From the IMG/VR virus record IMGVR_UViG_3300013936_000015, positions 32,001 through 96,000 of that record: a DNA stretch of 64,000 nt. The stretch is one strand, 5' to 3'. Position 1 is the first letter of the stretch. Each line of letters opens with the position of its first letter. This DNA comes from a virus. Lineage: Duplodnaviria > Caudoviricetes. A model generated the notes under the pieces. It saw only the letters and a program-made list of their open reading frames with translations. It was not told where the DNA came from and made no database searches. The position numbers were made by a program, and so were the translations under genes. Below are positions 7,543-54,547 of the stretch, one piece after another.

Positions 7543-8693
7543 GAGCAATCCTATGTTAATTGATTATTTTCATCTTTTGACTCCATCATCTTCTATTTAT
7601 AGTTTGAAGCAATTCTATTTATCTATGCATCTGTTATACTTCCTTTAAATGAATTATTTAGAATGCTGGAATTAACCATAGCAGCAACCTATTTAAGAGA
7701 AAAATTAAATAACTGTCTATCACTGATAGAACGCACTGAGTAGCTACCATCAAATATAGAATCTAAAACTCTATACATATTGTATTTTAACTAATAGGCG
7801 GTCTCTTTATCATTCTCACAAATAGTCTTAAACACATTATCAGAAGAATCTGTCTATGTAAGATATTCTGTCATACTCTATACCATAAACTCCTCTAATA
7901 AATCTGTTTGTGTTCTATTAGTATAAGATACTCCATTTCCACTTTCTGCCCAAGTCTAAAAAGCAGAAGATAATCTATCATTAGATGCAATAGTACCAAG
8001 AAGATTTTCATATAAACTTCTATTAGTAGATTTAACGGAACCTAAAATAAGATGCATAAACTCGTGCAATGCTATTTTATCTGGATTGTCTACAGTAGTA
8101 CCATCAGATCCTTTAGTCTTTACATAGATATTTCCATTGTATATAAATCCCATTGCATTGAAATCAATATCAGATGTATTGGGAAGCATTTTTCTTAAAT
8201 CGTCTTCAGTAGCATAATAAACATTAATACCATATAAATCTTGTAGTTTACCTACCATCTCTCTTAGTAACTCTTGTGTATCTATTTGAGAGTCCTATAT
8301 TTCTATATTTGGATTAATAGAAGATACAATGGAAGGTCTTTTTTTAATATTAAGAGAATATCTGTCCCCATATTCTCTTCCTTCTATTTCAAGATCTCTA
8401 TACTAATCATTTAATGTAATTATTGCATCTTGAAAACTATTCTAACTAGAATCTAATTGTAAAAAATTAAATAAATCTGATTTCTATCCAGTTTTTCCTT
8501 TCGCCAATTTTAATTGCTTTCTTAGATAGGGTTCAGAGTTTGCACCATCTAATTCATCTAATTGAGGAAGTTTGCCATCATGTATTGTAAAATAATGACG
8601 GAGCTGGCTTTTTAATTCAAAATCGGGAAGCCCAGACTTAGCTTGTAAGTCTTGGACTTGCCCGTCTAATTGTGGGTCTATACACCTTAACAT
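7539..8693 (-). CDS. Zincin-like (HExxH) metallopeptidase-domain protein (~384 aa, TAG=Gln)
   Basis: GFIYNGNIYV...IALHEFMHLILG. Fragments 8693 and 8258 are in frame. The TGA stop overlaps the next ATG. Confidence 0.75.
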
Positions 8694-11600
8694 ATATCTG
8701 AAAGTAATGTTATTAGTTTGTCAATAAACTTCTTATAATTATATTTATACATAGGTTCACCACTACTTCTATTTATTGTTACTTCTGGTTTTATATGAGT
8801 AAAATATGAAGCATAACTATTATATCTCTTATCTTTTAAGAAGTCAATAGGCTTCCCATTCACTTCTACACGTAGCACAGTACCCTATTTAGTTATAAAT
8901 TTGATAGAGTTAATTGGTTTTTCTACAATTTTACCATTCTCCTCTGTTTGATAAGATTTAGCATATTCTGGCAATCCTTCTTGTTTCTAATCTTCATCAG
9001 GATTGGCATAATATGTCTTTTCAAAATTTCCATAATCTACAGAAGTATAATAATTAGAATATTCTTCTGAATTAGGAATTAAAGGATTCTAAGGAGTACG
9101 ATTTCTTACTACAGTTCTACCTTCAGGAGTATTTCTAATGAAAATATCATTATTAGGGTTAGATACAGCTATCTAAGACATCATATCATCTATCTTAAAT
9201 GTAGAATCAGTTTTCACAAAATAATCCTAATCTAATTGGTTGATATAATTATAGTAATCCTCAATCAATGGATGATTCATACTATTTTTAAAGATATTTG
9301 TCAATGCTGTTTCTCCTGTTTTATTCTAATAACAAATAGCGTTATATAAGAAGAATAAGCTTGTTAAATCTGTGCCATCATATTCATAATTTTGTAATTT
9401 ATCAAATTCAGAAATATAATAATCAAGTAAATCAGATTCTGCATCAGAACGTGGGGATAGATTAACACCTTTAAGACTATAAGTCGTTAATAGATTACCT
9501 TCTGGTGCTCTATCATATAAAACAGGAATTAATCTCTAAATAAATCCATTATTTTTTAAATCAGAATCTGTAATCTTCTATATCCTACCATTATCGTTCT
9601 GTACAGTATATTTTCCTTTTTTAAGGTCTGGAATAATAACATCTTCCATATACCTCTTAAAAGAAGCTCTACCGCTGGCAGTGCCTAAATGAATAGATAA
9701 CATATCATCTGCATGTAGTGTTGTACCAGTATACGGATCTTCTATTTCTGTATTCTTTCCTATTTTTACATAATTCTTATTATAATCATATACATATTTA
9801 TTTTTAGGAATAAAAATACGTATACCCCTATCATCAAAATAACCAGATTCTAGTAACCATTTCTAAATAAAGAAGTTATCAGTAAATCTGGCAATATTCT
9901 TATATATTTTGGTAGTATCTGCCTTTGTTAATCTACCTGTTGGTCCACTTATCTATCTTAATGCTATTGGACCAAGATAGGCAAGAGTTCTATATTTAGC
10001 AGATACTCCCATATACATATTATGCTACATATCTAATATCTTTAAGTAATTAAAGAAATGGGGTACTCTGGAAAGAATTAAAGGAATATTAAAGTATTGT
10101 TTAAGACTATTTTGCGACTAAATACATTTATCCCTAAAATCTTGATCAGTTAAGAAATAGTGTAATTTGCTGACTCCCGGCTGTACTATATTTTGTGATA
10201 CAGATACATCCTGTGTTATATTCTCTTCTACTTTAGATAATAGAGCTAATGTGTCTGTATCACTAGTATATAACCCCTAATTAATATGAAGAATTTGCCC
10301 TAATATCTTTAATTGTTCTGCTCCTCTACTTAATGTAGTAAGATCCTCCATTAGAGTAGGATTAGGTTTAGAATAAATTCCATTATTCTATGATAAAGAC
10401 ATTTTTATTCTAAATAAAGAAATTAATCTATCAACAGTACGTATATCATTCTACTGTTGTAATCCATTTCTTAAACTGCTTAATTTCGATATAGCATCCT
10501 ATGTACTCTCCATATCAAAAGAATCAATGTTATTTTTTTCGCTTAAAGAAATTTTCGATAATATAGCACGTTGATATGTATTAAATTTTTTAGTAGCCTT
10601 ATTATATGAGGAAATAATACTACTTACAGACCCTCCATTATATCCAGAGAATGAGTCATTAGAAGCTAATTCTGAAATTAAGAATGCAGTTGGAGACATC
10701 ATTATATTCTTCATAGACTCTAATGGGACTCCTAATGACATTCCAAATAACCACATACCCATTGTATTAGTATCACAATTTAATTTAGCTAGAGCAAGCT
10801 CTTTTGCATTATCAGTAGCTAAAGAAAGAATACTTGATAACATTAATACGTAGTCTCGTTGATTTTGAGACTTTACTGTAGATCCATTATAGTCATAAAG
10901 ATTACCAATAGTTTGATATTTCTAATTACCTATTTCAATATTCTTCTAAATCTTTTGTATTAAATTGGTATCCCCAGTTCTTAGAATATCATTATAAGCC
11001 TGTGTAATAGCAAAGAAGGTCTTTAATCCTACAGCAGCAATACCCACTCCCTTCTTTCCAATTTGATTGTTTCTAATAGCATATATATTAGAAATAAAAG
11101 AACCTTGTGTATTTTTAAGTGCTGCAGTTGCCTTTAATGATTCGTTTGCTAATTTTTTAAAAGGTCTAGTAGCTTCATCTACCGAATACTACGCTTCATA
11201 TTGATTTTTAGGATTGTTGATAATACTAAATATATTAGCAACACAGAAATTCTTTACTGCAGCATCATGTATATTTGGATTTTTAATATTATCAAGATAT
11301 GTGTTATATTTATTTGCAAGATTGATGATAAATCTGACCACCTGTCTAGTTGAGGGACTATCCTGATTATAAAAGTTCAATCCTTTTCTCTATATCCAGT
11401 CCATTAACTCATTAAAATTACGAATCTAATTGACATTTTCCAATGATAAATCTATTTTTCCATCGTCTCTTACAAACAAACAAGTCTTATCTCTATTGTT
11501 AGAATCTAAATAATCATATAAATTCAAAAAGCCATTATCAAATCGGGCTTGATATTCATATCTTAGTATTCCATCCGGCTATGGGGATTTCATAGATGCC

Positions 11601-14600
11601 TCTAATAGCTCTGGAGCTTTTAAATTAAAATATGGATGCCATCCAATAAACTTACCAGTTTTATCAAAGTCATACATAGCTAGTGTAACACTGTCAATGT
11701 CATAATCCATTTTACTTTTATCTAACCGTTTCCGTTAGATTACTTATTTTTTCAAATAAGATGAGACTATATCTTCACTTTTAAGTGCTTTGCGCTTCAA
11801 ACCCACTTGGGTTTTATACCTATATTAGGATTTACTAGTCGTTGCTCCTTCTATCAAAAATTGACAGCTTGGGTACGGATTGTCCAATCTTTAATATTTT
11901 TACTATACCAAGGTAATTACTCTTGCCATTTTTATTAGTATAAAAACTTAGTAATTAAAGCTCTAAGGAGTTTCCCGTAATTCACAAAGTTTTTAAGGGT
12001 TCCAATTTTTAAATTTGTATTCCATTGAAGGAATTATATAAGGTTTAACTAAATTATAGAATTTAGATTTTGAAATATTTAAATGTATGCCTATCTATTT
12101 ATTAGTTAAACCCTCTGTATTTAATTTAATAATATTATCTATAATTTCTGTTGTTATTAAAGTCTTCTTTGATGTAGGGGTAATCTGCATCTTTTTTAAA
12201 TATTTTCTAATGATATATTCAGACACAATCTCTCCTACAGTTTTACCTGCTTCTGTAAGTTCTTTAATCTTTAAAGTGTTTACTTCTTGTGACATAAATT
12301 ATATTAATTAATTTGAAATTAATATATATATATGTCTGTAATATAATATTTTTTTATTTTTTAGAACCCTATAAATAAGTCTAAAGAGTACTTACATATG
12401 CAGTATTAACATCACTATCAATAAAACCTACTATTCTCATAGACATAAATGATTGCATAGACTGTGCCGGTATACGGGAGGCTACCATATCAAGAGATTT
12501 CATAAAAGAAGTATATATCTCCTATCCAATATCAAGAAGGTGATTAATAGATTCATCTTTTTTATTAAAGAAGTTATATTCATTTAATTTTCTCTTTTCT
12601 GGATCTGATTCATTTAAAGCATTAGAATAGTCTTTCTTTAATCTTTCAAACCAACTATTATAGTTATTAAAGAACTTTGAAATATCCTATCCTTTTGCAA
12701 ATCTTTTATATATCCTATTAGCTTCCTTATTATTACTCGAATTTAATGCATTAAAAAGAGTAGCTTGAGAGTTTTTAGAAACATTTCCAGAAAGATTTAA
12801 TGTGAAACTACTTGTGTTATCTAACCAATATTTATAATCAGTAGTAACTATCACATCGTGAGACACTCCATTATCATCAACATATTCCCAAATCTCATCC
12901 TATGGATTCTCATCACTAACCTCATTGTTATTTTTAGACAATGTGTATAACACGTTAAATTCATTGTCTATAACGTCCACAGTACCATTTTCATTAGTTC
13001 TTGTAGCAACATCTTCTTTACGATGAAAATGGCTGTCAGAAGAGACTCTATTACGGTCTATCACATAGATTGGATTATTGTCAAGACTATTAAAAACAAT
13101 GTCATAATAATTATCGGGAATAATGTTTTGTAGAACACTATTTAATAATTTCTTTTGGAAATATGTTTTATCATTAACAATATCACTTAATTTGGTATCA
13201 AATCCTAAACCATATTTAGAAGCAAAGACTTTAGGGAGAACAATCTCGTAAGGCCTTATTTTAATAGAATCGGGAACAATTTCATAGGTTTCTCCCTCAA
13301 TAGTAACATCGCCAGGATTATTAGGATCTAGGTTACTGAGAACTGCCTAAAGCTAATGCATTGTAGCAGCTTTGCCACCACTTCTAAATTGATTCTTAAT
13401 AGTATCAATATCATATAATGAATATGGTTTTTCATTACCATCACTATCTCTAACCTTAAATGTTACATTATAAGGTCTTAAATTTCTTCCCTCTTTGACA
13501 TTTTCTACTATTTTGCTAATAGCTCCACGTCTTATAAGCTCATAGAGTTTTTCTCTACATTCTACAGAATTTACAGTTACCTAAATAGTATTAGCACTTC
13601 CTGTAATTGTATCTCCTGCATTTAAATTCTCTAATTCTTGTTCTAAATCATCAGGATTTTGTCCCTCTTCAACAGTAAGATTATATGTGGTTTCAAAATC
13701 AATCATCGGATGTTCAGTATCCCCTCTCTTCCACAAAGGATTATTATTATATTCCTATTGCAGTCTATCCAAATCTCCTTCTTGATATTCATCCAAGAAC
13801 TTACCACCATATAATTTTATTCTATCATAACTGGGACACAAAACAGCAAGTAACCCAGACATCTTTACTTTAATACCTGCTTTAGTAAGAGCAACCCCAA
13901 CTGTAGAAATCAGCTTATTATAAATCTAACTATCACTAAATGGGATAGAGTCTTTATATTTAAAGAACTCTCCATTTTTATTTAATTCCAAAAGTTTATT
14001 TACAATACTCTATACTGTTTCAGAATTATTCTTCTATGTAATAAGAGCATTTCCAATTAATTCGGCTACTGTATTCTAGAATCTAGCTTTTCCTGTTTCA
14101 GGATATTCTAGATACTAATCAAAAGCTTCTTGATATTTTCTAATAGAAGACTTAGCAAGATTAGCAAGACCTTTATATAACTGGTCAGCCTCATAAAAAG
14201 ACATTCCCCTAGAAGCACAAGCACTAATTACCTAAGTAAACATAGATACATCCTCGCTGTCAGCATTATGTTCCTTATCTAACTAAATACCTGCTTGAAG
14301 TAATTGGATCTTTAGAAAATTAGGTCTGAAATCACCAATTTCTTCTCCTTTTAAATACTTATTGATATTTTCAATATTAGCAGCACCTTGCTTTACAGCA
14401 CCTACAGTAGGCATATAATGGATATTACACTATTTCATTACCTGATAAAGGTCGTGTTGTGTATGAACAGTATCATTTAATTTAATACCATTAACATTTG
14501 CCATATCAGATATAGCTTTAATGCTATACTCAGAATGAGTAAGTTTATTGTCTCCCTATTTTATCTCATAGCATTCATACCCACCTAAAGCATTCCATAA

Positions 14601-17600
14601 ATCATAATTAGAATTAATAGATAATAATCCATAGGAGTTACCATTTTTGTCTTTAATATCACTTCTATGTATAAGCTGTCCTATGTCTTCCCCATTTTCA
14701 CTTACCTCTGTAAGAAGTTGGTCATATGTGTTATTCCCTTTATATTCCATTCCATCAAAACGATAATACTTTCCATCTAGTTTGATATAAAACTATCCAG
14801 TAGTGTCTTTATCATTATTAAATTGAAATGTTTCACCATTATAAGTTTCTAACACATTATAATTAGATAAGATATTACCATTCTAATCCTTATATTTCAC
14901 GTCTGTAGATAATTTCATCATTTGACGGTCTGCTATAGACATTCTCATAATTTCATTAGTAATAGCAAATCCTGCACATTTTATAATACCTCCAGTACCA
15001 GTAGAAGGGTCATAAAAATGGAAGAATTGTTTCTTATTAATACCTACCTTTTCTGCAGCAAGAGAACCGTTTTCCCAATAAGCAGTAAATGGATTAATAT
15101 ACATAGCACCATCAGAGGTAAGAGCGTTTTCCTTAAATCCTGTAATAGTATTAATTCTATCTGCTAAATCAGCAATACAGGTTATCGCTACACTTGAGGG
15201 TAATCCTTGTAATCCGTTTAATTCATAAGCATGCATTGCAGCAGTAAATGATACATTACGTTTTGTCTGGGCAATATATCTACTTGATTCATCACGTTCA
15301 AGAGCATCCTCTAATCTATCACAATAATCATTTGCTTCTGGATAATTAGTACGTAATTTATCAATATCATAACCATTTTCTCTAAGAAGTGCAGCATACT
15401 TCATATCTTCCCATTGCTGGGTAGGAAGATTATCCTAAGCAGAAATAGGGCTAAGCATTGTCATTGCTGTTTTATCCTTAATGGGGTGATTAAATGCCCC
15501 TCCGACAGTAGAAAGTACCCATTCCTGTGTAAATAAATAATTTAGACGATTGTATAAATCAATATCTGGATTAATTTCTACAGAATAGCCATTAGAGATT
15601 AAATCCTTTATTACATCTGTCATAGGACTATTCATAGAAACTTGATCACTTACTAATTTGTTCCAATTAGAATATAGATCGTATTTATTATGAATATCAA
15701 TAGAATTTCCTTTCTAATCTGTTATTGTACAGATTGAGAAGTTTTCAGTATTCTCACCGTCTTTATAAAAGCCGTTGAAATTATCTTCCAGTAAATCAGC
15801 AACGATTTTAGTGTTCTACTATTCAAAATATTTATTTATATTTCCAAGATTATTAGAAGTAAATAAATTCTTTTGTTTTATTAATAAAGGATTTACATTA
15901 AGAAGATGATTTTTGTCTTCTATATACATAGAAGTGTCAATAATAGAAACTGGCTCATTAGGATGGTCCTAATTATATCTTCTAGCTGCATTGTTAATAG
16001 CTTCTAATGGAGTTATTGACCTGTCACTATTTATATAGGCCTCATTCATCTACTGAAAATCATACATCCCATTATATTCAAGAGAAATGTTTTGATATAC
16101 TCCTTCAAAATAAGGTTGTATTTTATGATACCTATCAATAATAGAATTAATTACATTCTTGTAATAATCACCTAACTCCTAACTTATAATCTAAGATATT
16201 GCATTTTGTTTCTCGTCTAAGAAAGTATTAGATGTAAGTAGATCATATAAAGAACCATTAGAAGCGGTAATATTATTTAAATCTACAATAATTCTAGGAA
16301 TATTTGGTTTATCAGAATTATCAGTAGAAAGAAAAGCGACTTTTCCGTTTCCAACAGGAGATTTAGTATTTTTGTTATTATCAAGTCCTTTCAAATAATC
16401 ATAGATAAGACAAGAGGTTTCCATTTCTGCAGGAGAAAAATCAGTAAGAGCAGTAGTAGTAGTATAGCTTGCCTCATCTTTAAATTCTTTAGCTTGAAAA
16501 ACTCCCTTAAATACACCGTTTCTTAAAAGACTAAAATTCTTATAAGCAGAATCACGTCCTTGAAGTTCCCATTGTTGTCTATAACTACCATTTAATCTAG
16601 ATAATGCAGTAGCAGGAAGAGCATTTCCCTCACCATCCTTTAATACAGCAGATGTCAATTTACCATCAATAATTGCTTGTGCTCTTGCTAAGGTGTCTAT
16701 AATAGACATCTCATTCTAACTGGTAACATAAGACTCTCCAAACTTTCCATTCCAATCTGGAACAAGTTGGGAATTAGTATAAAAAGTCGAGAAGAACTTT
16801 TTACTATCTTCTTTAGTAACTTTTTTCTTTCCTCTTTCAGTAAGATTGATACTGTTTTCTTCAGCAAGTCTTTCCCTTACTTTCATTAAGGCTTCTGGAA
16901 ATTTCTTATCAGAAGTTCTACCTCTTCCATCTTTATGAGTAATTTCAGCATTACCAGTATTATATAATACATTTAAAGAATCTGGATTCTGTTTAAAAGA
17001 AAGATATATTAATGATTCCATTATTTTAGGGGATACATTATCCCATACGCCTGTATCTGAAATAGTAACACTCTTTCTCCCCCACTATTTTGCATAACTT
17101 CCAGACAAGTTGTCTTGTAGGTACTTTCTTAATAACTTCTGTTTTTGCTGTTTATTAAGTGTATTGTCATACTTTAATTTCTAAGCATGAAAAGCAGCTT
17201 CTACAGAATTAAAGCTTCCTAATATAGGAAGAGGCTAAAGACCTTTCGATTTTAATTCGGCATTTATTTTGTCATTAATTTCAACAGGTCTTTTAGTAGA
17301 GAAGTTACTTAAATTAGCATTTTGGTCAGTACCACTATAAACATTAATAGAAGCAACTCTCCCTTGTTCTGGAAGTATATGAACTGCAATATACCTGTTT
17401 AAAAGAATATGACTAGTAAGTTTAGTAAAATCATCTAATACTTGATCAATTTCATTATTCCTTAACCCAACATATGCATTATATAATCTAGAATCACTAG
17501 AATCAAATAATGTTGAGTCTATTGTATTATTAATAAGCTAATGAAGTTTATCAGTTTCTTTTTTATTGAGTTCAGATATATTTACAGTATTTCCATTTTT

Positions 17601-19235
17601 AATAAACTAATATTTTCCGGTATTATATACTTCTAAATAAAGATTATTATCCGGATCTCTATTAGTCTATAAATCATATTTTATACCGATTAGCTTATCA
17701 TCTTCTTTGATTTCAGAAATATTACTAATATCAGGATTAGCTCTACGGCTGTTCTATATAAGTAACTCGTCTTGAATAGCTCTAATATTAGTATCCACTG
17801 TCTAATCATATAAATTTCTTAAATAAGTAATATTTTTAGAGGTTCTAAAATATTGAAGATATTTATTCTCATAGATAGTATCACAAACTTCTGTTATATA
17901 ACTAAAATAGTTGAGATTATTATATCCTACTCTATCATTAGCTGCTTTTAAAGTAAGTGGATTGTCTGGATCAAATAAAGAGCTATTTAATGCTTGTATT
18001 AGAACTGTATCAAAGTCATTAAAATATTTATTTAAATATTGCTTTCTAAAATCATAATCATTTAATTTTTTAAAGATTTCTGGAAGATACCTTTGAGGAT
18101 TTTCTTTCATACTAGCAATAAACTGAGGTAGGGTTTTCCATCCAAAGGAGTCAAAATTAATTATTTCATCATAATTTTCATCCGCAATCCTTTTAATCTT
18201 AGCAATGATATACCCAAACTCATTAAATGTCATTGGCCTTCCCTAAACTTTAGCAGTAGATACTAATAACTTAACAATATTACTGACTTCAGAAGCAACA
18301 TCTATAATATCACTGGACCTCCATGTACTATTCATATTAGATGTTTGAGCATTAGAAAGAGAATATTTATCTTCTCCAGAAAATCTAGGAGATAGATTAT
18401 CAATATAGATACTTTTTCCAAATGTAGAACGTAATACTGCATCAAAATTATTAAGAATTACCCAACTGTTATAGCCATCAATAATTGTTTGATTATTCTT
18501 TCTGTCTAAAAACAAATTATTTAACTCATCTGTATTAAATCTCTCATTGCTTAATTCTTTCCCATATTGTGCCTAAATTCGTTCTACAATACCAGTATAT
18601 TTGCCATCAACATACATCTAGGCATCATTTAACATTGGATCCTTTAATCCTATAGCTCTTAAATAATTACATACATTTTCTAAATATCCCTACTGGATAT
18701 CTCTTAATTCCTCATTCATCTATACATCATTCTAAACAAGAATACCTTGATTGTTAGATGTATAGAATAAACAATTCACTCCTAATTTGGTAGATTCTTG
18801 TTTACAATATCTTTTAGCGGCATAACTATTGCTAAAACTTTCTAATAAATAAGAATTAGTAAATGTCTTTTGTAACTCTTCTTTATCGTTAAGCTTTTCT
18901 AGTCTGTCTGTAGTAGTCTATTCAATATTAGGTTTAGGAGATGTTTGTGCATATGAAATTAATCCATTTCTGATAGCATCCTTGTTTAAAACAAAATCAG
19001 AAAGATTATCATTTTCCATCTTTACAAAATCTTCAAAATAATCAGAACAAATATTAACAGCTTGCTCTAAATTTTCACTATCTTTTAGGCTGTATTCTTC
19101 TCCTAAAGTTTTTAATATCTACGTAGCTTTTTCAACTACATTTGAGGCATTTACCTCATCTGCATTACTTAATGGGGTGGCGAAAGAATTTTCCACCGCC
19201 CCATTAAATTCACTTTCACTGAATGCACATTTCAT
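8687..19235 (-). CDS. crAss-type virion DNA-dependent RNA polymerase polyprotein (~3297 aa). Exons 19235-12363 and 11707-8687, TAG=Gln
   Basis: Spliced product reads SRIPAQSMQS...LQGS|DYDIDS (two-barrel DxDxD loop). Also TSDGAMYINP, IIKCA, MFTQVISA and LSLATDNAKELALAKLN. All fragments are in frame within each exon. Confidence 0.88.
11708..12362 (-). mobile_element. Group I self-splicing intron (655 nt) in the RNAP catalytic loop
   Basis: 5' exon ends in U and the intron ends in G. Core elements GAAUUACGGGAAAC (P), AAUCCGUACC (Q), GCAACGACUAG (R), GAAGAUAUAGUCU (S). P1 pairs exon AGGGUUCU with GGAACCCU (plus 11996-12003), with U.G at the splice site. Confidence 0.9.
11993..12295 (-). pseudogene. 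Probable internally deleted homing endonuclease remnant (100 aa with TAG read-through) in the intron L1 loop
   Basis: HTH-like N-terminus joined to FYNLVKPYIIPSMEYKF, which resembles the C-terminus of LAGLIDADG_2-type enzymes. No nuclease core is present. Confidence 0.55.
16865..17350 (-). other. NADAR (YbiA/DUF1768)-like domain embedded in frame in the RNAP polyprotein
   Basis: NLSNF...FNSVEAAFHA(Q)K...LSGSYAK(Q)WGRK...WDNVSPKIMESLIYLSFKQNP...LYNTGNAEITH...FPEALMKVRERL. (Q) marks a TAG codon. Confidence 0.75.
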
Positions 19236-19240
19236 AATTA

Positions 19241-22200
19241 TTAATTTTTAATAGAACTATTTCCATACTGTTTTTTAGTTTTTCTAACTGGTGGAACTCG
19301 TACAGCAGTAGCACAAGAAGAATTATTATCCACTTTGTTGTTAGAATTAGGCTTAGAATCATCTTTACTTGCAATATAATTAAGAATAGCTTCTGCCACA
19401 TTCTAGTCCAGCGAATTTGGTATATTTCTTCTAATAGCAGCTCTTCCTGAAGGTTTATTAACAAGACTAGCTAACTTCTTTAATGTGTCTGTGTCTTTCA
19501 ATAAGTCTTCAAATGAATTGAAAGATACATTTTCTTTCTTAAACCACTTACCAAACATAGTTAAATATTGAGAATTTTGATCGACAATAGTATTGTCATC
19601 TATCTCAATATTAGTTGTATTTTTTGGAGTATTATCCACTTTAGACATAGTAACCCGTATTTTGTTATTAGAAGTATCAATTTCTATTTTATAGTCAATA
19701 GAACCATCAGATTTAGTAATAACATCATGAGGAGTATTACTATTTAATTGTAGACTATCAAATGTAGTATTTAATATAGTTAAATACTCATTACTTAAAC
19801 TACCTACATCTGCTAAATAATACGTTCCATTCTTTTTAACTAGGAATTGCTTATGTGATAGAGCTGTACGATATATTGTCTTTTCTTGTTCTAATGTAAA
19901 TTCTTGATTAGGTGAACTAGGCTTTAATCCTGTACCATCAAACCAAGACTAATTAGTAATAATATTAGCTTTATCAGTAAAGCTTGGCTGTGGCTATGGA
20001 GTAGAAGACTTGTCATAATTATATCTTGAATTTTCATGAGAAGTCCAAAATCCATTAGAATTTATATACATATTATCAGATACCTTATTCATTAAATTAT
20101 TAAAAACAGTATCAGTAATAAACATATTAGGGCCTATTCTACCACTGGATGTACACTCCTTATTACTAATTCTCTTATCTTGAATTTTGTAATCATTAGT
20201 AATATTTGCAGTAGCAACACCTTCAATATCATCACTTGATTGATTTAATTTTGCTTGATAATAAATCAATTCATTTCCCATTAATGACTGAATAGTGTTA
20301 CATTTTGTACTATCAACTACTAAGCTTTCAGTGGTAGACATAACTGTTTTTGTTGCAATTTTATGAATTAAATATGCAAACTATTGTGACCATGTTCTAT
20401 CAGGATTTGCATCAAATAAGCCACCTAAATTATTATTCTAATCTCTACCTGCTTTACTTGTTAATACATTTGCTTTACCATCACATTTTATTAAAATATT
20501 TTTCAGAGCATTAAATTTAGATACATCAGTCTGATTAGAATTGTCTAAGCCTAATAAGTTATATATATCAGTTTCTTTACCATTATTAAAAATCGCATTT
20601 AATATTCTATATGGAGTAGATATATTCCCTAAAAACTTTTCTTTAGATGTTTTAGTATATACATCATGTACACTTTGAACATACTCTTGTACTGATATAG
20701 TAGGAGTAGATATATATTTAATCTATACCTTCTATTCACTATTTTTATTATCCTACCTATCAAACAACTGTTTCTTATACTGTTGCATTAATTTATCATC
20801 AGTATCAAACTCTGGATCGGAAGAATATAAAATAAAGAGATGTCCCTTTTTAGGTCTAAATTCTTGTTGAATAGAAGTCCCTTTATAATTAAATACATTG
20901 CTTACTAAACAAAAAACATGAGAAGACATTTGAACATCTGCCCTTCTTAATTTAGAAATAGGATAAAAAACAGAGTCTTGTACAATCTCTCTATTAGCAC
21001 TGGTAAATGCTCCTCTATCTATATTAATCTATGGGCCTAAATTCCTCATTTTCCCGGGAACCCAATCAGTATTATCAACATAGGTAATTCCTCTAACATT
21101 AGTAGTATAAGCATAGACATTACAGAGCTGTGCTAAATCAACAAATCCTGCCTATTTAAGACTACTTGCTATGTTAAACAAGGCAGTTCTATTTTTCTCA
21201 ACACTCTGATTAGATGTAAATAACTGTTGTAAGTCAATTTGTGCTTTTAGCAATGCTGGTGGGTTATCATTTGATTGTGGATCTATTAAAGAATCAATTT
21301 TAGAAAGGGGATTATTAAGCTGGAATAAGGGGATTTCTAATGAATCCTTACCATTAATACTAATAATAGCAACAAACTCCCTACGTGATCTATAACCCGG
21401 ATTCTCAGAAAATTCTGAAATTTCATCCGTCTACCTATCAAAGCGTGTATAGTCACCAGCCTTATCTACTTTTTCTTGTTCATTTGGCTTAAATACTTCT
21501 CCTGATTTTAATGCAAATGATACATCTACATTACCCTGCTTTCCAATACCTGATTGTTTAATAGCAGTTATTATACTATTTTTATCGGTGTAATTAAGAA
21601 GTATTCCTCTAAGCTTTCCCATTAATTTAAAAGCATGAAGTAACTGTTGAGGAGTATATGTAGGTTGGTCATAAATAACATTGAGTCGTAGAAAACCATT
21701 AAACCCATCAATTCTATGACTTGAATTTAAAGGCTTATGATATCCAGTAATATTTCCACTAGTATCCCTTTCGGGAACAAATCCAGTCATAAAACATCTA
21801 GAAGAATCAACTAATTGAGAAGTATGAGATTCCCCATTATTCTAAACTCCTTTTAATTCCTCTTGAGCCTATTTTCTTTGAATATCTTCTAATTGCTTCT
21901 GCTGTTTTTTATTTTCATCCTAAATGACTTGTGGACTATTCTATATCTCTTGTAAATTTATTTGCTATTCTGCTATTACATCATTTATCCAACTGTCTAA
22001 TACATTACATACAGGCTTTGTTTTATAAATAATCCGTTTATCCCCACTTTCTATTACTACCTATTTAGGTGTTTTTGTAATAGAATAAGTATTCTTTCCA
22101 GCAGTAATCTTTATTCCTACTTTTTTGGCAGCATTAAAGAAAGGATCTAGAAAACTACCATCTCTGAATGTAATTGTATTTTTATTATCATCCGATTCTA

Positions 22201-25200
22201 TCTCATAGCTACAGTTCTAAAAGTCTAAGCTGTTATTAAGTAAACTTTCCGCATGAGAATCTCTAATGCTTTTAATATCATCCCTATATTGTGTAATAAT
22301 ATCTTTTGCACCATTAAAATTAGGTAAATTATTACTCTTGTTACTTAATTCAGCATTAAGTGTTTTTAATACAGAATCACTTTCATCAAAACCAGATAAC
22401 GCCTTTGTTTTCAGTCTATCTAATGTGTCTCGTAATTGTTGTTCCTAATTCTAAAGAGAGAAACTATTTAGAGTACTCTGAAGATAGTTTCTAAGATTAG
22501 CATCCCTTATTTTCTATATTGTTGTATTAACAGTTTCTCCAGTAGAAAGTCCTATTGTCACATTTCCCTAGTTATCTATACGGACATAATTCTGCATATT
22601 ACCAGACTGATTTGTAACATAATCCAACTGTCCTAAATCATCAGCAGTAAGGGAAGTAATACCAACACATTCTATATCATTATTAGTTTGTTTCCAATTC
22701 CAATCACTCGTATCTATATTCAAGTCTATATTCTGACTATATTTAGCAGATATTACTTTAATAATTTCAGTACTTGCATTTGATAATATCAATTTTTCTG
22801 TATTATCCAATGCAGAACTTTCACGATCCTTATATTCCTATTCTTTATCATATAACTGATTAAATGTAAGAGTATTTGCATTCTACAAGAATGTGTTAAT
22901 TTCATTCTGTAAATCTGCTATAGACTGTGTTGTTGAAGTAGGCGGAACTACTGTAGAATTACTATTGTTTGAAGTATTTCCAGACGTATTATTCTGATTA
23001 TTATTAGAAGTACTTCCAGAAATAGGAGACCCAGTAGGAATACTCTGTCTAGATTGATATTTAATAACACCGGGTGTAAATTTCTATAATGAATTTACCA
23101 GAATATTCATATAATTCTAAGCATATCTCTATTTGGAATCAGTAGAGATATTAAACTCGCTGGTTTCTTGATCTTTAACTTGAGAAAGAGGGAGAACGCT
23201 GGTCTTTTTGGCATTATTAAGCAGAATACTTCCTTTCTACGCCCTAGTAACAGCAGTATATACGTCCTATAGATATGGAACAGATCCTACATTAGGATTA
23301 GCATCAATGATCCAATAATTTCCTTCTTCACCTTGAGCAGAGTTTCCTTCATAGAAATTTATATGGTCTTTATATTTAGGAGTTCCAGATAACTTCTAAT
23401 AAAGTGCCGAATTGGTATCATAATAGATATAACCAATTTTTTCTCCTTTTTCTAGATTGGCAAGAAATTTATCTATCCCCTCTAGAATTTGGTCTATATC
23501 TTGATCTTCTATAATTTTTGTTCCAAGAATCCTATTATCGTCTTCATAATAATGAAGAACAAGAGAATCATTAATATGAGATGTAGAATGTAATCTAGCA
23601 ATTATAGCATTTTGATTGGTAGTCTATTGTACATTTAATGAACGTAAAGATGTTCCAATCTTTGCAGTATGCATCATCTGGTTAGGCTCTAATACAGATG
23701 TAAAAGTATAATTTTTTAAATCATCTATAGTATACCCATTGTCTGCTGCATTCTATTTTATTTCATCTAATTGAGATGGTTCTAAAAGATTTTCCAGAGG
23801 AAGAGTTGCTCTAGATTGTGTCTAGTCTAAATCACCAAGTGTTACTACTGCTATTCCATTCTTCTATGCATACCTATCAATAAGCTATAATTCATCAAGA
23901 GTAAATCTACTTACCTCATCAATAAGAATAACTTGTGGAATTTCATCTGTTTCTTTTAATTCAAAAGAATTAATAATACCTTTATCCTTATCATAGATAT
24001 ATCTATCCTTTCCTTGTGAAGTTTTTACATCAGCAATAGTACCTTCATCGTTAAGTGTAAAGTCTTCCCAATCACTAATTTTTTGTAATAAACTTGTTCT
24101 GGAGAAATTACCCTTTCCTTTATTTTCTAATCCCAGAGTTTTTCTATCTCTTTCTGCATTCTACTCGCTAGTATTTATAATCCATACATTACTAACTTCA
24201 TTAAATTTCTATAAATACTATGCCAGAATGTATTTTACAGCAGCACTCTTACCACATCCAGCATTTCCAAATACTGCAGTAGTATTAATAAAGGTGTTAA
24301 AGTTTATACTATATAATAATGAAAGATTGGTCGCAATAGTATTAGCAATGGTTTCATTATTAACTAATGAATTAATATAGTCTACTCTATCTTTATAGGG
24401 TAGTGATTTTAAATAATCAAATGTTGCTTTCTATGCTGCAATATTAAATTTACTAAGTGTTTCTCCATTTATTACATTAGCAACACACAGCTAAAGTGCC
24501 TGCATCTATGAATCAATAGGAACAATCCCTGCCTAATTATATATAGGAAGTATATCCTTCATAAATTCAGATGTCTTAATAGCTGCAGATGCTGTTAACC
24601 ATCCAAAGAAAGCATTATTATCATAAGAATCAGATGTTTCTGTAAGTATTGTCTAATCCTAGCTTAATAAACTTAACTTCTAAGGATTAAAAAATGCAGA
24701 TAAATCTTTAGTACTATTTTTTTGGAAAAAATCATATACCGCATCAGATAATGAAATAAACTCTTGTTTTATTTTAGTAGTTATATCATTAGAAAACCCA
24801 CTATTATCAGTAATACTATCAATAGTAGGACAATTATCAAGAGCTTTCTTTAAGTCATCTGTATCCCAATCATCGGGAACTACATCAATAATAGATTTTA
24901 ATTTCTTATAAAGTAACTAAGTAGTATTTATACCAACATTAGTTTGTCTATTTAATACCTAACCTACATTAATACCATAGAGAGTTTTATAATATTCTAT
25001 CTGTTCTTTTAAAGATCGAATATCCAACAAAAGATTATCAGCAACTTCACCACTAATAGTAGGAAGTTCTTCCCAAGATTCATCTTTAGAAGAATGTGCA
25101 ACATCATTTAATGTCTTATTAATACCAAAAATGTTATCTCTAGGAGTTCCAGATTTATCATCAAAAACCTTTAAATCTGCATTATCAGAACGAGCACCCT

Positions 25201-28200
25201 CAGCAATAGCTTCTAATTGATTTAATAAAATACTAGCCTATATTAGTCTTTTCTTTGTAGAATCATTAATAGAAAACTTAGAAGGATCACCGTCAGTAGA
25301 AACCTCACTTTTCTATAAATCTTTTAATAATTGAGAAAAATATACTGGTTCAGAAGATACTGATAAATCAAAGGCATCCAATAAACTAGTAATAGGGGTA
25401 TTAGGAAGAGAATTATCAGATAAAGCCTATTCATATTGAACAAATGGAGTTTTAAGCCCTTCTCTACGTGCATTATCTGCCAAATCTTCAACATCAACAT
25501 TAAATCCATCATCAAAATTATTTATAGTTCTTCCTACATTCTACCACCATTTCTTTCTCTATGCTTGAGCAGTCTTAAAGAACATTTGATATGTTCCTCT
25601 TAATTGAGAGGGAATAAACCCTCTGTTTTGTGCTTTTTTACCCTCTTCAATAACTTTATTATCAAAATCATCTAATACTTCTCTAGCCAATTTTTCATAA
25701 AGTTCTGGAGATATTGATACATTTTCAGTTTCTCTATTACCTACTCTCATTATTCTCTTTCCATAAGAAACTGGCATATTAGTTTCTGGATCTATTAAAG
25801 CAGATAATTGTGCATCTTCAGGTAATACAGTAGCATCCGCATCTTGATTTTCTACAGCATCCTGTAAAATTTGAAGTTTAAGAGCAGTATAATCAAATAA
25901 TAAATTAGAAGCCTCCTATGCTCCTTCTGCATCTGTTAAAAACTAATTCTAATCAACCTATGCTTCTTCATTTAAAGTTCTATTAACCTAAAGACTATTA
26001 TTTAATATTTTTTTGATATCATCATCTTGAGCTAATTGAGCATAAGTGTTTTGAATTTCATTTAGCTTATTCGCAAAAGCCTTTGTATATGCAAGATAAT
26101 TCTTAGTAGCCTAATCAATATCATTCTTCTTATCAGATTTTAGATATTCAATATAAGACCCTTTAAGAGTTTCTAACTTCTCTTTTGGAATATCCTCAAA
26201 TTTAGTATTCTCTTTTGCTTCGGCATATCCTCTAAAAGTAGCTGATTTTAAGAATGGCTGTAAGATAAGAGGTGTTGACTCTAATAATGCCGGAGCCATA
26301 AATAATGCAGCTCTTTTACCAGTATTAATATCATCAATCTTCTATTTAACCTCATCAAGCTACTTCTATTTCTTATCAATTAAATCTAAAGTAGTTTTTA
26401 CTTTAGGATCATCTTGTTTATATTTTTGATCAGGAACATTCATACTATCTTTTAATTGATAAATTTCATTATGTAACTATAATGCTTGTGTAGCAAGTGT
26501 ATTATAGTCCTAAATCATTTTACCAGCAGTAGTAGTATGGTAAAGATATTGCCATCTTAAATCTTTAAGAGTATTTGCATCAAATAAACTCTAATCATCA
26601 AGAGTAGCACCGTCCGCTTCTAAAGTAGTTTGAAGTAAATCAACCTATTTATTAATAAGGTCTTTTATATATTTATCTTGATTATCATCCTTTGTTCCCT
26701 GTTCATAACCAATGATATTGCCATTCTCATCAGTAACTGTTTTGGTGGCAGATAAATATTTATTTCCAAGAGTATCATTATTTATCATCTTTCTAAATGA
26801 TTGTAACTCTTTTGGGTTACGAAGCATATAAACCAATTCTTGAGATGCTTTCTGAAATGTCATATCTCCAGTAGATTTTGCAGTATTAAAATTTAAGGTG
26901 ACATTTCCAATACCACCACCAATAGCACCTCCCATAAATGACATTAGATAACGTGTTTGCCATCCGTCATGGCTCATTCTTGAAGAAGACCCGTTAGCTT
27001 CCTAATAAAGATTATAAGTTGCTCTTACAAAGTCTGAAAGAACCTCCTCGCTGGTTTCCTCAAAACCTTCTCCAAGAGCACTTGCTGCAGTAGATTTTAA
27101 GGTTTGTGAAAAAGTGCCCTATCTTCCTACCTTATAGTCTGCTTTGAAAATCTTCTTTCCTAGATTTATTGTTTTAGCCCATAAAGTAGATTTTGCTTGT
27201 TTTGTGGTAGCATTGGCACTTTCTATATTGAATTGTTTAATAGCATCCTTAGTAAGAGCATTTTTAATGCTTTTCATCTTCATCTTATTTGCTCTTAATT
27301 CTGGTAATACCCATTCACCAAGTCCTGTGCTTAACAATCCATATTCTGCTGCAGCATAGCCCATAGTAAGTAATGCTGCTTGTGCATCACTAGCTCCTGC
27401 CTATTTTGCCTCATCATATGTGTCATTAACAGTGAGAAGAGTCATATATGCTTTAGATAAAACAGCACCAGTATTATAATATTTACTAACATAATCCTCA
27501 ACTTGTTTAGCTGCTTTCATCTGATTAACTAATTCAAGTTGCTTAATACTATTCATAGCATTAATAGGATTTTCTTTAGTAAGTTGCTGCATTGTCATAC
27601 CAGTCTTTGCTTCTATCTTTGCGATATTCTAAGCATTAAGAGCTTTCTCAGTTTCATTGGCCATTGCCTGTTGGCCCTTTTGAGAAAGTACTCTTTTATC
27701 CATTCCAAAAATTCTGGGAAGTTGTTCAAAGAGCATTCTTTGTTGTTTTAGTTGTGCAACAGTATCACCAACCATACCAAACATATTTTCCCACGTCCAT
27801 GCTTCTTGCTGACTGTGTTCTGATCTAGTAAGCATAGGATTAGTAGCTTCTGACATTCCTTGCACAAAATTACAAAGTTTATTATCAGAGCCTAATGCTA
27901 TCTTTCCTAATGTAGAACCAATATCAAGAGCTTGTTGTAAAATAGTAGCACCTGTAATGTACTACCCTACTCCCGGAATAAACATTGCACCAACTAATGC
28001 AGCATTTTTAACAAAAGAGCCTGCTGCAGATTTCTATATATCATCACTATCAAGAAAATCAACAGAGTTTAAGGGGTTGTCTTCTGCAGTAAGCACATCA
28101 CTAAGATGTAAAATCTATCTGCCGTTAATACTTCTGCCATTTAAATTTTCATAGTAATATGTACCAGTATCAGGATTGATTTTTAATTCTCCTTTATGAT

Positions 28201-28810
28201 GCTCTATTTTCTTTTCATCAAATCCAGCCTATCCTCTTTCAATTCCATTAATATCAATATCATTATCATATTGTGCAAGTGCTCTTACATCTGTAAGATT
28301 TCCAAAGAAGGATGCTTCTGGAGAATCTTTCCATGATTTAGAAGCAGGATCCCACACTTTCTGACTCTATGCAATTTCTGCTGCTGTCTTTGTTCTAGGA
28401 CCAGTCTATCCGGGGCGTATCATTCCCTCAGTAACCCGATCTGGATTAAACTAATGAGTATTAATACTAAATTCAGGAGAGTAATCCACAGCTTCATGAG
28501 GAGCAAATAAATCATATTTGCTATACTTCATCTAAAATTCATTTTCTGCTTCTTTGACCAACTAATCCTATGCTAATTGATTATAAGCAAATGCAGAAGT
28601 ATTGTATATTTTATTAAAATTAGGTTGACTAAAGTTATTATTACTATCTTTAAATAAGTCATTATCCTAAATCTAAGAAGAATTTTCATATGTATCCTTA
28701 GATTGAAAAGAAGTGTTGGTAACATTTAAACCAACACTCTAAAAGTCTTGTACGTTAAATGATGGATTAGCCATTACATTTAACAACATATCATTTTCCT
28801 TTTGCTCCAT
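19241..28810 (-). CDS. Giant putative virion cargo protein (~3189 aa, TAG=Gln) with an SF1 helicase domain
   Basis: Ten supplied fragments are in frame with ATG 28810; ends TAA 19241. Walker A FGNAGCGKS (~24270), Walker B VILIDEVS (~23920), motif III LGDLD(Q), motif V SAQGEE, motif VI VYTAVTRA (~23250). Confidence 0.82.
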
Positions 28811-51802: not shown

Positions 51803-54547
51803 TTATGCTTGACGAATGATATAAGAACGATATGGATTGAAGACACAAACACCAGCAACACCCATAATAACCTTCTTAGAACCAGCTACAGGAGTGGCAA
51901 CTGCACCAGACTGATTACCATCAAGACCACCAACACCAGCAATAGTATTCTGGATAAACTGGCTGTCCTTAACAGTAAACTGAGCCATTGCAGGAGTACC
52001 ACTAGCCGCATCACTAGTCAAGTCCACAATAATTCCAAAGCCTCTATCAGGATATTCCTCAGTCAAAGCTCTATCAACAGTAATATTAATACTATTGCCC
52101 AAATAGTTATAACTGTCATAGCCCATAGGATTAACCTTAACAAAACCATTAGCCTTCATAGAATACATGAAAGAACCATCGGTCTTAAACTTAGCAAGAT
52201 AATCACCAAGAACACGGTTGATATCTGCATAAAGAATCTCATTAACAATGAGATTATAAGTATTACCCTGCGGCTTCTCTGCCTTACGATTCAAAGTTCT
52301 AAGAGCAGTATTCAAAGTCTCTAACATAAAGTTAACATATACACTCTTAGAAGCAAAACGTTCAATCTGAGGAATGATACCAGCACCAATATTTACTGGT
52401 CTGCCAGTAGCAGGATCAGAAATAGTACTCTTACCATTCTTATCCATAGAACTTCTATTCAAAAGAAGTCCCTTACCACGAGCCAACATAAAGTTGTCAA
52501 GAAGAATCTTCTCCTTAGTGTCTAACTGGAAGAAGGTCTCACCCTGACCCTTAGAACCAGCCATACGGATGAACTTGTCCTCCATAATAGCAAACTGGCT
52601 TGAATAATCAATATCATTACGGAAAGTGGTAAGATAATTACGCATCTTCTGAATGTTAGACTGAGATTTTACATACAATTATGTTATCAATATATTACTA
52701 TATTGTTCAGACTATATCTTTAATTATATAATGTATTTATATATATGTCCCTTCTATGTTTTATTAGTTCCATTTAACACTTTCCATACACTTGTTCCAT
52801 TTTCCTTAGCAGCAGCTGTTGCAGAATCATATAGCTTTACTAATTCTCCATTTAAAGTATATTTACCTACTCTCTTTTTACTATTAGTTCTACCTTTGGT
52901 TTTTGCAAAATATTCTGGAACTTTCACCAATGCCCATATATATCCATATTTATCAGGTTTTTTACTAATAATGGCTTTATTAAGATTATTTTTTGGAAAC
53001 TATTTTATAGCATCAATTTGTTTAAATTCCTATAAATATTTTCCATCAGAATCATATTGATAAATAGTTCTATTTAATGTATAAATAGTGTTGGCTTCAC
53101 TGTATGTGTTAGCCAATACAGTAGAAATTTTGTATCTACTATTTATAACACACCCAAAAAGTAGGGCCTAATGTATGGTAGACAGATGTAAATTTAATTT
53201 TTTTGCACACTCCATTTCTGAATTATAGGTTTTTATAAAGTTTCCAATACAATCATATATATATACTGGAACTTTATGATTATTTCCCTAATTATATAAT
53301 GATATGTCTAAACATTTCATCTTATCAGTGCTCCAAAAAGAATTACAAGATTTCTATTTAGAATATATTGCATGCTATATAGCCCCATGAGTAACATTAT
53401 TACTATCAGCAGCTTCTTTTATTGAAGAATATTCTTTTATAAAATTTCCTAAACAGTCATATTGAAATACTTTTACTTTAGGGGGAATCATATATTCTCC
53501 TCCAAGTATCATATTATAAACATCTGTTCGTTTCAAAAATTCTTCATTTACTATATAATATTCTAAATCATAAGCAGATTCAGCATCATCAAAAATCTAA
53601 ATAGTCTATCTTATAAATTTATCTGTACCATATTTTTTTACTGCACATTGAAAGTATGTTTTGGGATGTTTATAGGTATATGGCTAGTGTATGTTAATAC
53701 CACATCCTATATATCCATCAAAAACATCTGGAGTAAGTGTTTTATGTACTCCAACATATATTTTTTTGTTTACTAGATTAGTAGTTAAGTAAACAATCCA
53801 TTTATAATTAGTTTCCATTTCCATATTTTATATATGTAATCCTTGCGGATAGTCGTTAAACTTTATTATTAATTTGTTAGAAAATAACTAAAATAATAAC
53901 CTTAGCTGCTGATTGTCCCAATATCACAGGAATTTCCAGCAATTAAAAAACTTTATTTAATTTTACGCTACTAGTTTAGCAGCGGAGGAGAGCAATGTAA
54001 ACCTACCCTCCTCAGACATCTCAGGGAATGCATTGGACTGGAAGACTGTAAGATCACCGGGCATTGCACCGTCCATATTAATTACAGTATTGTAATCCTC
54101 ACTAATAATACGAGCTTGCAACTCATACAAGTTGGTAGCCCTCTTAATAGGATGACTTACAACAATAAACTGCTGGCGAGTCTTCTCAACCTTGAAAATA
54201 TCATACTTCTCATAATAACGATATGGGAAGAAGAATGTAATTTCAGTACCATCAGCACCATCACCCTCTGGAACAGCTGCAAAAGGTACTCTCTTAATCT
54301 CATTAGCATCAATCTGCCATTCTACCATAAAACTATCAACACTCTGGAACTTATTAGCCTTCTGCTTACTATTATAGAAAATGTTACCAAGAGCCTCAGT
54401 GTAATATGTGGCAGTACACTGTGGATACAATCTACTTACTAAACCTAAATTCTTAGGCTTATCTCCAAGAAATTTTAAAAAATTCTAATAGGTACGAGTT
54501 TCACCCTGATTAAACGAGGGATTTGAAACATAACCAATAGTTGCCAT
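51803..54547 (-). CDS. Major capsid protein (~471 aa). Exons 54547-54005 and 52675-51803
   Basis: Spliced junction FQSNAFPEMSEEG|YVKSQSNIQKMRNYLTTFRND; also GAGIIPQIE and GVCVFNPYRS, typical of crAss MCP. One TAG at codon 21. Confidence 0.88.
52676..54004 (-). mobile_element. Group I intron (1329 nt) in the major capsid gene
   Basis: U|...G| boundaries. P1 GAGGAGGGU pairs with GCUCUCCUC (plus 53985-53993) with a terminal U.G; P10 UUUACAU pairs with the 3' exon AUGUAAA. Core AAUUGCUGGAAA, AAUCAGCAGC, AACGACUA and AAGAUAUAGUC. Confidence 0.92.
52724..53824 (-). CDS. Intron-encoded GIY-YIG homing endonuclease with NUMOD1-type repeats (~366 aa, TAG=Gln)
   Basis: WIVYLTTNLVNKKIYVGVH...YIGCG...YNMILGG, then repeats such as VFQYDCLGNFIKEYSSIKEAA and VGKYTLNGELVKLYDSATAAA. 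Confidence 0.85.

Follow-up and report, generated by a model that had tools for sequence, protein, structure and literature searches.

The NADAR-encoding locus

The DNA analysed here is a stretch of 64,000 nucleotides (referred to below as the window) corresponding to positions 32,001-96,000 of the virus record IMGVR_UViG_3300013936_000015, which totals 136.5 kb and is estimated to be 76% complete. Reading TAG as a sense codon reveals a row of giant open reading frames (ORFs) on the minus strand of the window, among them 12354..19235(-), which encodes 2,293 amino acids (aa), contains 45 in-frame TAG codons and is open only when TAG is sense (Gln). Residues 629-796 of this product (16848..17351, minus strand) are a NADAR-fold domain, identified with Pfam PF08719, PHROG 1017, an AlphaFold2 (AF2) model and Foldseek/VIA, and the ORF that hosts it is, as judged from its sequence, exon 1 of a gp66-type RNA polymerase (RNAP) of the crAss-like phages. 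Unless stated otherwise, coordinates are those of the window.

A preliminary description of the locus had placed the domain at 16865-17350; the position was right, but the strand has to be corrected to minus. A plus-strand reading of these coordinates was rejected because every frame is ridden with stop codons. The six motifs listed in that description, namely LSNF, SVEAAFHAQK, LSG..AKQWGR, W....IM....SFKQNP, L..TG.A.ITH and FPEALMKVRERL, are all found at residues 629-790 and in the order given. Under the standard code the region splits into ORFs of about 100-170 aa, and three TAG (Gln) codons lie inside the domain itself (17235-17237, 17181-17183 and 17085-17087, all minus strand), so that standard-code gene calling hides the domain, bearing out the earlier remark that the fusion is concealed in this way.

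The use of TAG as a Gln codon in this virus record is supported by a tRNA with the anticodon CUA (amber suppressor; 121209-121281 of the virus record, minus strand, outside the window) and by alignment with a standard-code homologue, in which Gln faces the TAG codons of the window in 19% of aligned cases against a background of 3.4%. This rate equals that of Gln opposite genuine CAA/CAG codons in the same alignment (17.5%). Also outside the window, tRNA-Thr(UGU), tRNA-Arg(UCU) and tRNA-Ile(UAU) are found at 132985-133738 of the record.

Family assignment and fold

When searched in isolation, the domain matches Pfam NADAR (PF08719, DUF1768/YbiA-like) with 36.5 bits (cutoff 35.1, E 7.4e-9), with the caveat that in the whole 2,293-aa protein the score is 29.9 bits, under the cutoff; the match spans just profile positions 11-122 of 163. 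A subfamily profile of 35 members gives a full-length match to E. coli YbiA (E 9.1e-15, positions 11-162 of 168) and also matches the ADP-ribose-bound Phytophthora NADAR 8BAU (E 5.4e-10), and the window domain is assigned to PHROG 1017 (E 2e-11). Searches of the PDB by phmmer, with the domain and with the whole protein, returned no relevant match, so that profile and fold searches were needed. No PADLOC model recognises the domain, a negative that is uninformative since the NADAR of phage T4, AdfN, is missed as well.

The AF2 model of the domain, built on the subfamily alignment, has a predicted local distance difference test score (pLDDT) of 86 and a predicted template modelling score (pTM) of 0.81, and shows the alpha-helical core with two small flanking beta-sheets that defines the YbiA-like fold. 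The three solved NADARs head its list of structural matches, namely 8BAU (Z 14.6, 2.5 Å over 146 residues), YbiA 2B3W (Z 13.8) and the DarG1-type 8BAT (Z 8.2), whereas the next chain, which is unrelated, scores 2.8. The NADAR domain of the preliminary description is therefore present by Pfam score and by structure, at levels well outside what chance would give, and the lack of a NADAR fold, which that description had named as grounds for abandoning the idea, is not what these comparisons show.

Active site

The catalytic residues of NADARs were defined by Schuller et al. (PMC11543638), who equated E43, K50 and E125 of the Phytophthora enzyme with E88, K95 and D171 of E. coli C7 DarG1. According to the same study, the third position is Glu in YbiA-type, Asp in DarT-associated and His in phage NADARs, and the pyrophosphate of ADP-ribose (ADPr) is contacted by R79, W89, D130 and W133 in the Phytophthora structure 8BAU. 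Residue equivalences for the window copy were set by alignment and spacing to the P. nicotianae NADAR. E679 (17199-17201), K686 (17178-17180) and H767 (16935-16937) take the places of E43, K50 and E125, while R720 (17076-17078) and W731 (17043-17045) take those of R79 and W89, all encoded on the minus strand.

The motif SVEAAFHAQK supplies both E679 and K686, the catalytic Glu and Lys being seven residues apart, and H767 in TGNAEITH stands at T+7 from the TG motif, a spacing identical to that between Thr and E125 in the P. nicotianae enzyme. The catalytic residues that the preliminary description had proposed to check are thus in place, with a His of the phage type at the third position, and the window NADAR keeps, as far as its sequence can tell, an intact catalytic core of Glu, Lys, Arg, Trp and His. 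Among 151 relatives that are mutually no more than 50% identical, 150-151 retain the Glu, Lys, Trp and His (150 for the Glu and 151 for the Lys), a pattern that speaks for selection for catalytic function across the family. Private to the window copy is an insertion of about 17 aa (residues 657-673), and the His is followed by a divergent loop, KDGRGRTS (about 16911-16934, minus strand).

An intron-split crAss-type RNA polymerase as carrier

RNAP exon 1 comprises residues 1-2291 of the giant ORF (12363..19235, minus strand), including its 45 TAG codons read as Gln; its final portion, ...SRIPAQSMQSFMSMRIVGF...LQGS, supplies the beginning of the catalytic double-psi barrel. The ORF itself terminates ...SRIPAQSMQSFMSMRIVGFIDSDVNTAYVSTLQTYLQGSKK*, and the next ORF, about 650 nt downstream, opens with M-DYDID. 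Between the two lies a group I intron with an inferred length of 655 nt (11708..12362, minus strand; Rfam core 11743-12041, RF00028, 59.9 bits, E 3.3e-14), the junction bases of which fit group I rules, with U (12363) before the 5' splice site and G (11708) as the intron terminus; the exact splice sites were placed by homology rather than from RNA. Exon 2 (8687..11707, minus strand) starts with the catalytic DxDxD motif DYDID (11693-11707). The whole spliced polymerase amounts to about 3,300 aa, with the NADAR about 1,600 residues upstream of the catalytic motif. Within the intron, a 101-aa ORF (11993-12298, minus strand) matches helix-turn-helix families weakly (NCBIfam, E of 3e-4 at best) and may be the remnant of the DNA-binding domain of a homing endonuclease.

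The assignment of the carrier rests on motif context and on a profile of the catalytic region. In the window, SRIPAQSMQSF...GF...LQGS precedes DYDID, which parallels RIPTQ..S...GFLP...GS-DFDID in the other carriers, the consensus in giant NADAR carriers being RIP(T/A)(Q/E)..S...GFLP...GS-DFD(I/V)D. The corresponding motif of phi14:2 gp66 is 1361-DFDID-1365, the fourth residue of which is I or V throughout the crAss-like phages (Drobysheva et al.). A hidden Markov model (HMM) of the catalytic region from 58 carriers gives the spliced window product 95.2 bits, exon 2 alone 57.9 and exon 1 alone 21.2, compared with -5 for the best of 200 shuffled controls and values below zero for the other giant ORFs of the window. 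The preliminary description had put the domain in frame in RNAP exon 1, and the RF00028 intron, the DYDID of exon 2 and the 95.2-bit profile score all support this.

One of the NADAR-bearing carriers (P0132) also matches the gp66 structure 6VR4 with an E of 1.8e-120, while direct phmmer of the window RNAP protein against the PDB returned no match. PHROGs and Pfam provided no name for the RNAP body or the neighbouring giant ORFs, save for a P-loop of the superfamily 1 (SF1) helicase type upstream.

Variable presence and recurrence of the NADAR module

The nearest GenBank phage, MT835470 (human faeces, standard code), has a similar arrangement of a 2,275-aa ORF, an intron-like gap and a 983-aa ORF, and its RNAP homologue is 24% identical to the window protein. 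No NADAR match was found in this homologue, and none is detectable in phi14:2 gp66 (2,180 aa). BLASTP high-scoring segment pairs between the window and MT835470 proteins (164-407/170-439 and 843-1039/723-916) delimit a variable region at residues 408-842 of the window RNAP (16710..18014, minus strand), lying between two shared blocks. This region measures 435 aa in the window and 283 aa in MT835470, a surplus of about the size of the NADAR domain. Its upstream part, residues 408-628 (about 220 residues), has no family match and does not align to MT835470.

The position of the intron also differs between the two phages. In the window the group I intron falls directly before DYDID, whereas the break in MT835470 comes two codons later, within the motif, exon 1 ending ...LQGSDY and exon 2 beginning ..DIDK (compared stretch 12322-13381). 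From these sequences, the two insertions would either be independent or have shifted, at the site where the RNAP is conserved most strongly.

When 1.84 billion cluster representatives were searched exhaustively, 449 clusters carrying this NADAR subtype were obtained at E<=1e-3 and 225 at E<=1e-10, mostly proteins of 2,000-5,500 aa; an indexed search for longer carriers had given a single protein. Among the 70 carriers of at least 1,500 aa, 58 contain the motif D[FY]D[IVG]D, which turns up in 2% of shuffled controls. In 20 cases the NADAR precedes DxDxD by about 1,450-2,150 residues, a range that includes the window offset of about -1,590, and in 38 it follows by about 600-1,600 residues. On the NADAR tree, which is poorly resolved and has a very long window branch, the placement class (before or after the motif) switches at least 5 times. 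Identity between the window NADAR and its counterparts in unrelated RNAPs reaches 46%.

When the RNAP body and the adjacent ORFs were compared with 150 NADAR carriers by BLASTP, no match emerged beyond the NADAR; the RNAPs of the carriers are too divergent for this method, and motif and profile tests were therefore used. A whole-protein search of viral contigs found no relative. Annotated carriers are cr126_1 (Steigviridae) and cr130_1 and cr131_1 (Suoliviridae). The NADAR is therefore a variable accessory module that recurs across crAss-type RNAP clusters, hundreds of which carry the fusion, so that it is not unique to the window. The absence of the domain from MT835470 and gp66 likewise answers the question, raised in the preliminary description, of whether the segment might be a core part of all crAss RNAPs: it is not.

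Neighbouring genes

Directly upstream of the RNAP lies a 3,189-aa ORF with 82 TAG codons (19241-28810, minus strand), in which the SF1-helicase-type P-loop region occupies residues about 1510-1667 (Pfam AAA_19/AAA_30); a helicase-bearing giant ORF precedes the RNAP in MT835470 too. Farther along the minus strand, a 396-aa ORF (56472-57662) matches a reverse transcriptase (PHROG 1423, E 1e-112) and a 366-aa ORF (52724-53824) matches a homing endonuclease (PHROG 314, E 3e-21, plus HNH), the latter being, from its sequence, a likely further sign of a dense load of mobile elements in this genome.

Proposed function

Two bodies of published work bear on what such a fusion might do. The phi14:2 polymerase gp66 is carried in the virion, enters the cell with the DNA, transcribes the early genes and uses single-stranded or denatured templates (Drobysheva et al.), and the RNAP proteins of PhicrAss001 were found as virion cargo by mass spectrometry and modelled as ejected. 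On the enzymatic side, DarT1 ADP-ribosylates guanine in single-stranded DNA and NADARs reverse this modification (PMC11543638). Removal of ADPr from DNA, and with it the defeat of DarTG1, is documented for T4 AdfN and for two phage NADARs unrelated to it, so the background given in the preliminary description for T4 gp30.3-like NADARs agrees with the literature, in which AdfN is a validated anti-DarT1 NADAR.

In the mechanism proposed here, the NADAR-bearing RNAP would be packed in the virion and ejected into the cell with the phage DNA. Because the polymerase is packaged and enters in a DNA-coupled manner in cultured relatives, the NADAR would arrive pre-made, ahead of any phage gene expression. 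It would then strip ADP-ribose from nucleobases, with guanine-N2-ADPr placed on single-stranded phage DNA by DarT1-like writers as the prototype substrate, and this de-ADP-ribosylation would leave a template on which early transcription and replication could proceed. It is predicted, with a probability of roughly 0.5, that the window NADAR is pre-delivered in this way and frees phage nucleic acid of ADP-ribose right as infection begins.

That DarT1 is the specific enemy of the window NADAR is a more tentative proposition and, taken by itself, rather doubtful. Phage-borne DarT, ART-PolyVal and Macro domains were sought in the 136.5-kb record, including a six-frame scan for ADP-ribosyltransferases (ARTs) with TAG read as Gln, and none was found, so that no other partner for the NADAR is suggested. 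A further extension is that the NADAR acts in cis, as a tethered eraser that would clear ADP-ribose-guanine ahead of the RNAP active site (transcription-coupled de-ADP-ribosylation) while the ejected polymerase opens or receives single-stranded phage DNA. Such an action would explain why the domain is fused repeatedly, and at varied positions, to crAss virion RNAPs rather than made as a free early protein, but as a specific mechanism it is speculative and unlikely.

Several observations weigh against the proposed pre-delivered eraser of nucleic-acid ADP-ribose. Proteins ejected in the PhicrAss001 manner would have to lose their fold in part and regain it afterwards. One study saw no rescue of DarT1 toxicity in E. 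coli by T4 gp30.3, from which it follows that NADAR activity is context-specific, and soluble ADPr derivatives are, in the argument of Iyer et al., the main targets of phage NADARs. The window copy itself is among the most divergent of its family: of the 59 columns that are strongly conserved, 16 differ in it (family median 3), and it scores 161 bits with the family HMM against a median of 235, just 3 of the 151 relatives scoring lower. Moreover, the family loop THTQDKGKWG is replaced by THKDGRGRTS, whereby the equivalents of D130 and W133, kept in 137 and 141 of the 151 relatives, are gone, their places being taken by G770 and T774 (with D769 adjacent). T4 AdfN, however, is active with a His and no Trp after it, and the loss of the loop therefore does not exclude activity of the window copy.

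The same divergence, including the loss of the Q-D...W loop and the private 17-aa insertion, would suit a decaying or purely structural, non-catalytic remnant in this phage. Against this stand the active-site Glu, Lys, Arg, Trp and His, all intact, the confident AF2 model and the precedent of AdfN, likewise without that Trp; in addition, the whole polymerase lineage is fast-evolving, as seen in its 24% identity to the nearest relative, while the NADAR retains its resemblance to copies in unrelated RNAPs, and a remnant is accordingly considered improbable. An altered pyrophosphate-contact loop could instead mean a different ligand, and an active NADAR might act on small molecules at the start of infection, either soluble ADPr-derived immune signals or toxic NAD/ADPr by-products. 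YbiA-type NADARs do cleave small-molecule N-glycosides, and a soluble target is the view of Iyer et al., but all phage NADARs tested to date de-ADP-ribosylate guanine in DNA, a covalent tether to a DNA-seated enzyme favours a macromolecular substrate, and with the riboflavin N-glycosidase model the domain scores well under the cutoff (25.1 versus 73.7 bits), which leaves this explanation unlikely, though hardly far-fetched.

Since the domain is fused to the enzyme that produces the first transcripts, the substrate might also be RNA, with ADP-ribose being removed from nascent phage transcripts on which ADP-ribosyltransferases of the host that target RNA have acted. In the literature, ADP-ribosylation of RNA is reported to be reversible, and that of cytidine to be reversed by NADAR hydrolases; the separation of about 1,600 residues between the NADAR and the catalytic motif nevertheless speaks against such a role, which appears distinctly unlikely. 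The remaining explanation is self-protection, in which the NADAR would serve as the eraser for an ADP-ribosyltransferase delivered by the phage itself, similar to a fused toxin-antitoxin pair. DarT-NADAR and YarT-YbiA are known pairs, and ART-PolyVal and NADAR share one RNAP polypeptide in 6 of the 151 carriers. In one of these from the exhaustive search (P0017, 3,536 aa), ART-PolyVal lies at aa 446-593, NADAR at aa 964-1096 and DFDID at aa 2696, which by sequence places a putative writer and eraser together on a single crAss-type virion RNAP polypeptide. For the window phage, however, this explanation is very improbable, given that neither ART-PolyVal nor DarT nor anything similar was found in the 136.5 kb of the record (about 76% complete) and that ARTs occur in just 4% of carriers.

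Significance

The window NADAR probably serves as an antidote, made in advance, against a host defence that acts by ADP-ribosylation. Phage NADARs have recently been shown to defeat DarTG1, so far just as free early-gene products of coliphages. If the proposal is true, the same activity would here be wired into the polymerase that accompanies the DNA and would act before any phage gene is expressed. crAss-like phages are the most abundant viruses of the human gut. The frequency of the fusion, seen in 449 clusters of mostly giant RNAPs, points to nucleic-acid ADP-ribosylation as a major pressure on phages of gut Bacteroidota.

In the literature searched, no publication linking NADAR, DUF1768 or YbiA with crAss-like phages was found, and the main crAss papers examined do not mention a NADAR fusion; on DarTG in Bacteroides, nothing of use was found either. 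The enzyme kind is known and the architecture new, the NADAR-RNAP fusion being apparently undescribed in papers, while the idea of head-packaged domains that handle ADPr is already published (PMC5512222, PMC9503650). The window copy is a divergent member, obscured further by TAG recoding and the intron, and illustrates how standard-code gene calling conceals modules in recoded, intron-rich phages.

Comparison with known systems

T4 gp30.3/AdfN, an 'orphan antitoxin' NADAR (PMC11257639; PMC11125620), shares with the window domain the NADAR fold, the catalytic Glu and Lys (E36 and K43 in AdfN, mutated in PMC11257639) and, in the hhalign alignment, a His at the third catalytic position with no Trp after it. 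Both are phage-encoded, and the proposed role is alike, namely removal of guanine-linked ADP-ribose from phage DNA against DarT1. AdfN, however, is a free-standing early product of 152 aa made after infection, whereas the window domain forms part of a polymerase about 3,300 aa long that is probably loaded into the virion beforehand.

As sequence families the two are also apart. T4 gp30.3 belongs to PHROG 652 (E 9e-51) and the window domain to PHROG 1017, hhalign relates them with an E of 1.9e-5 and a probability of just 77%, and tblastn of the window domain against phages did not reach T4; the likeness to the T4 gp30.3 branch drawn in the preliminary description does not hold at this level. 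That description had also likened the domain to the phage branch by its motif order, which is right for the His at the third position but not for the missing D..WG, a peculiarity of the window copy in a subfamily that normally has THTQDKGKWG. The crAss subtype usually has this D..WG-like loop, and AdfN lacks it.

DarG1 (BC4488-type; 8BAT; PMC11543638) resembles the window domain in fold (Z 8.2), in the Glu and Lys and in the similar chemistry expected on guanine-ADPr. It differs in its third catalytic residue, which is Asp in DarG1 and His in the window copy, and in its setting, since DarG1 is encoded beside DarT while no DarT (PF14487) was found in the 136.5-kb virus record; an N-terminal ssDNA-binding (single-stranded-DNA-binding) extension is a feature of DarG1 itself. 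YbiA of the riboflavin-intermediate N-glycosidase type (TIGR02464) has Glu where the window domain has His, and its model gives the window domain the low score quoted above.

With regard to the carrier, phi14:2 gp66 (6VR4) and PhicrAss001 gp47/49/50 share the single-chain two-barrel RNAP organisation and a D(F/Y)D(I/V)D motif in an RIPxQ..S context. These polymerases have been seen in virions, and from these relatives the window RNAP would be expected there as well. Compared with the 2,180-aa gp66, which has no NADAR, the window enzyme is about 3,300 aa long, uses TAG as Gln and has an intron just before the catalytic motif. A shared concept comes from the polyvalent or head-packaged phage conflict proteins described by Iyer et al. 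(2017, PMC5512222; 2022, PMC9503650), that of ART, Macro, NADAR and Nudix domains carried in the virion and deployed at entry. They differ in that crAss phages are absent from both papers, and NADAR from that of 2017, whereas the carrier here is a probable virion RNAP.

An architectural counterpart is QOR59539.1 of cr126_1 (Kolpuevirus hominis), in which one chain holds both DFDID in polymerase context and a NADAR that belongs to the window subtype (39% identity). In this protein the NADAR is located at the extreme N-terminus (aa 54-230), the standard code is used and there is no intron. It is named just "DUF1768 domain-containing protein", neither polymerase nor counter-defence; as it carries both NADAR and DFDID, the fusion is already present in GenBank.

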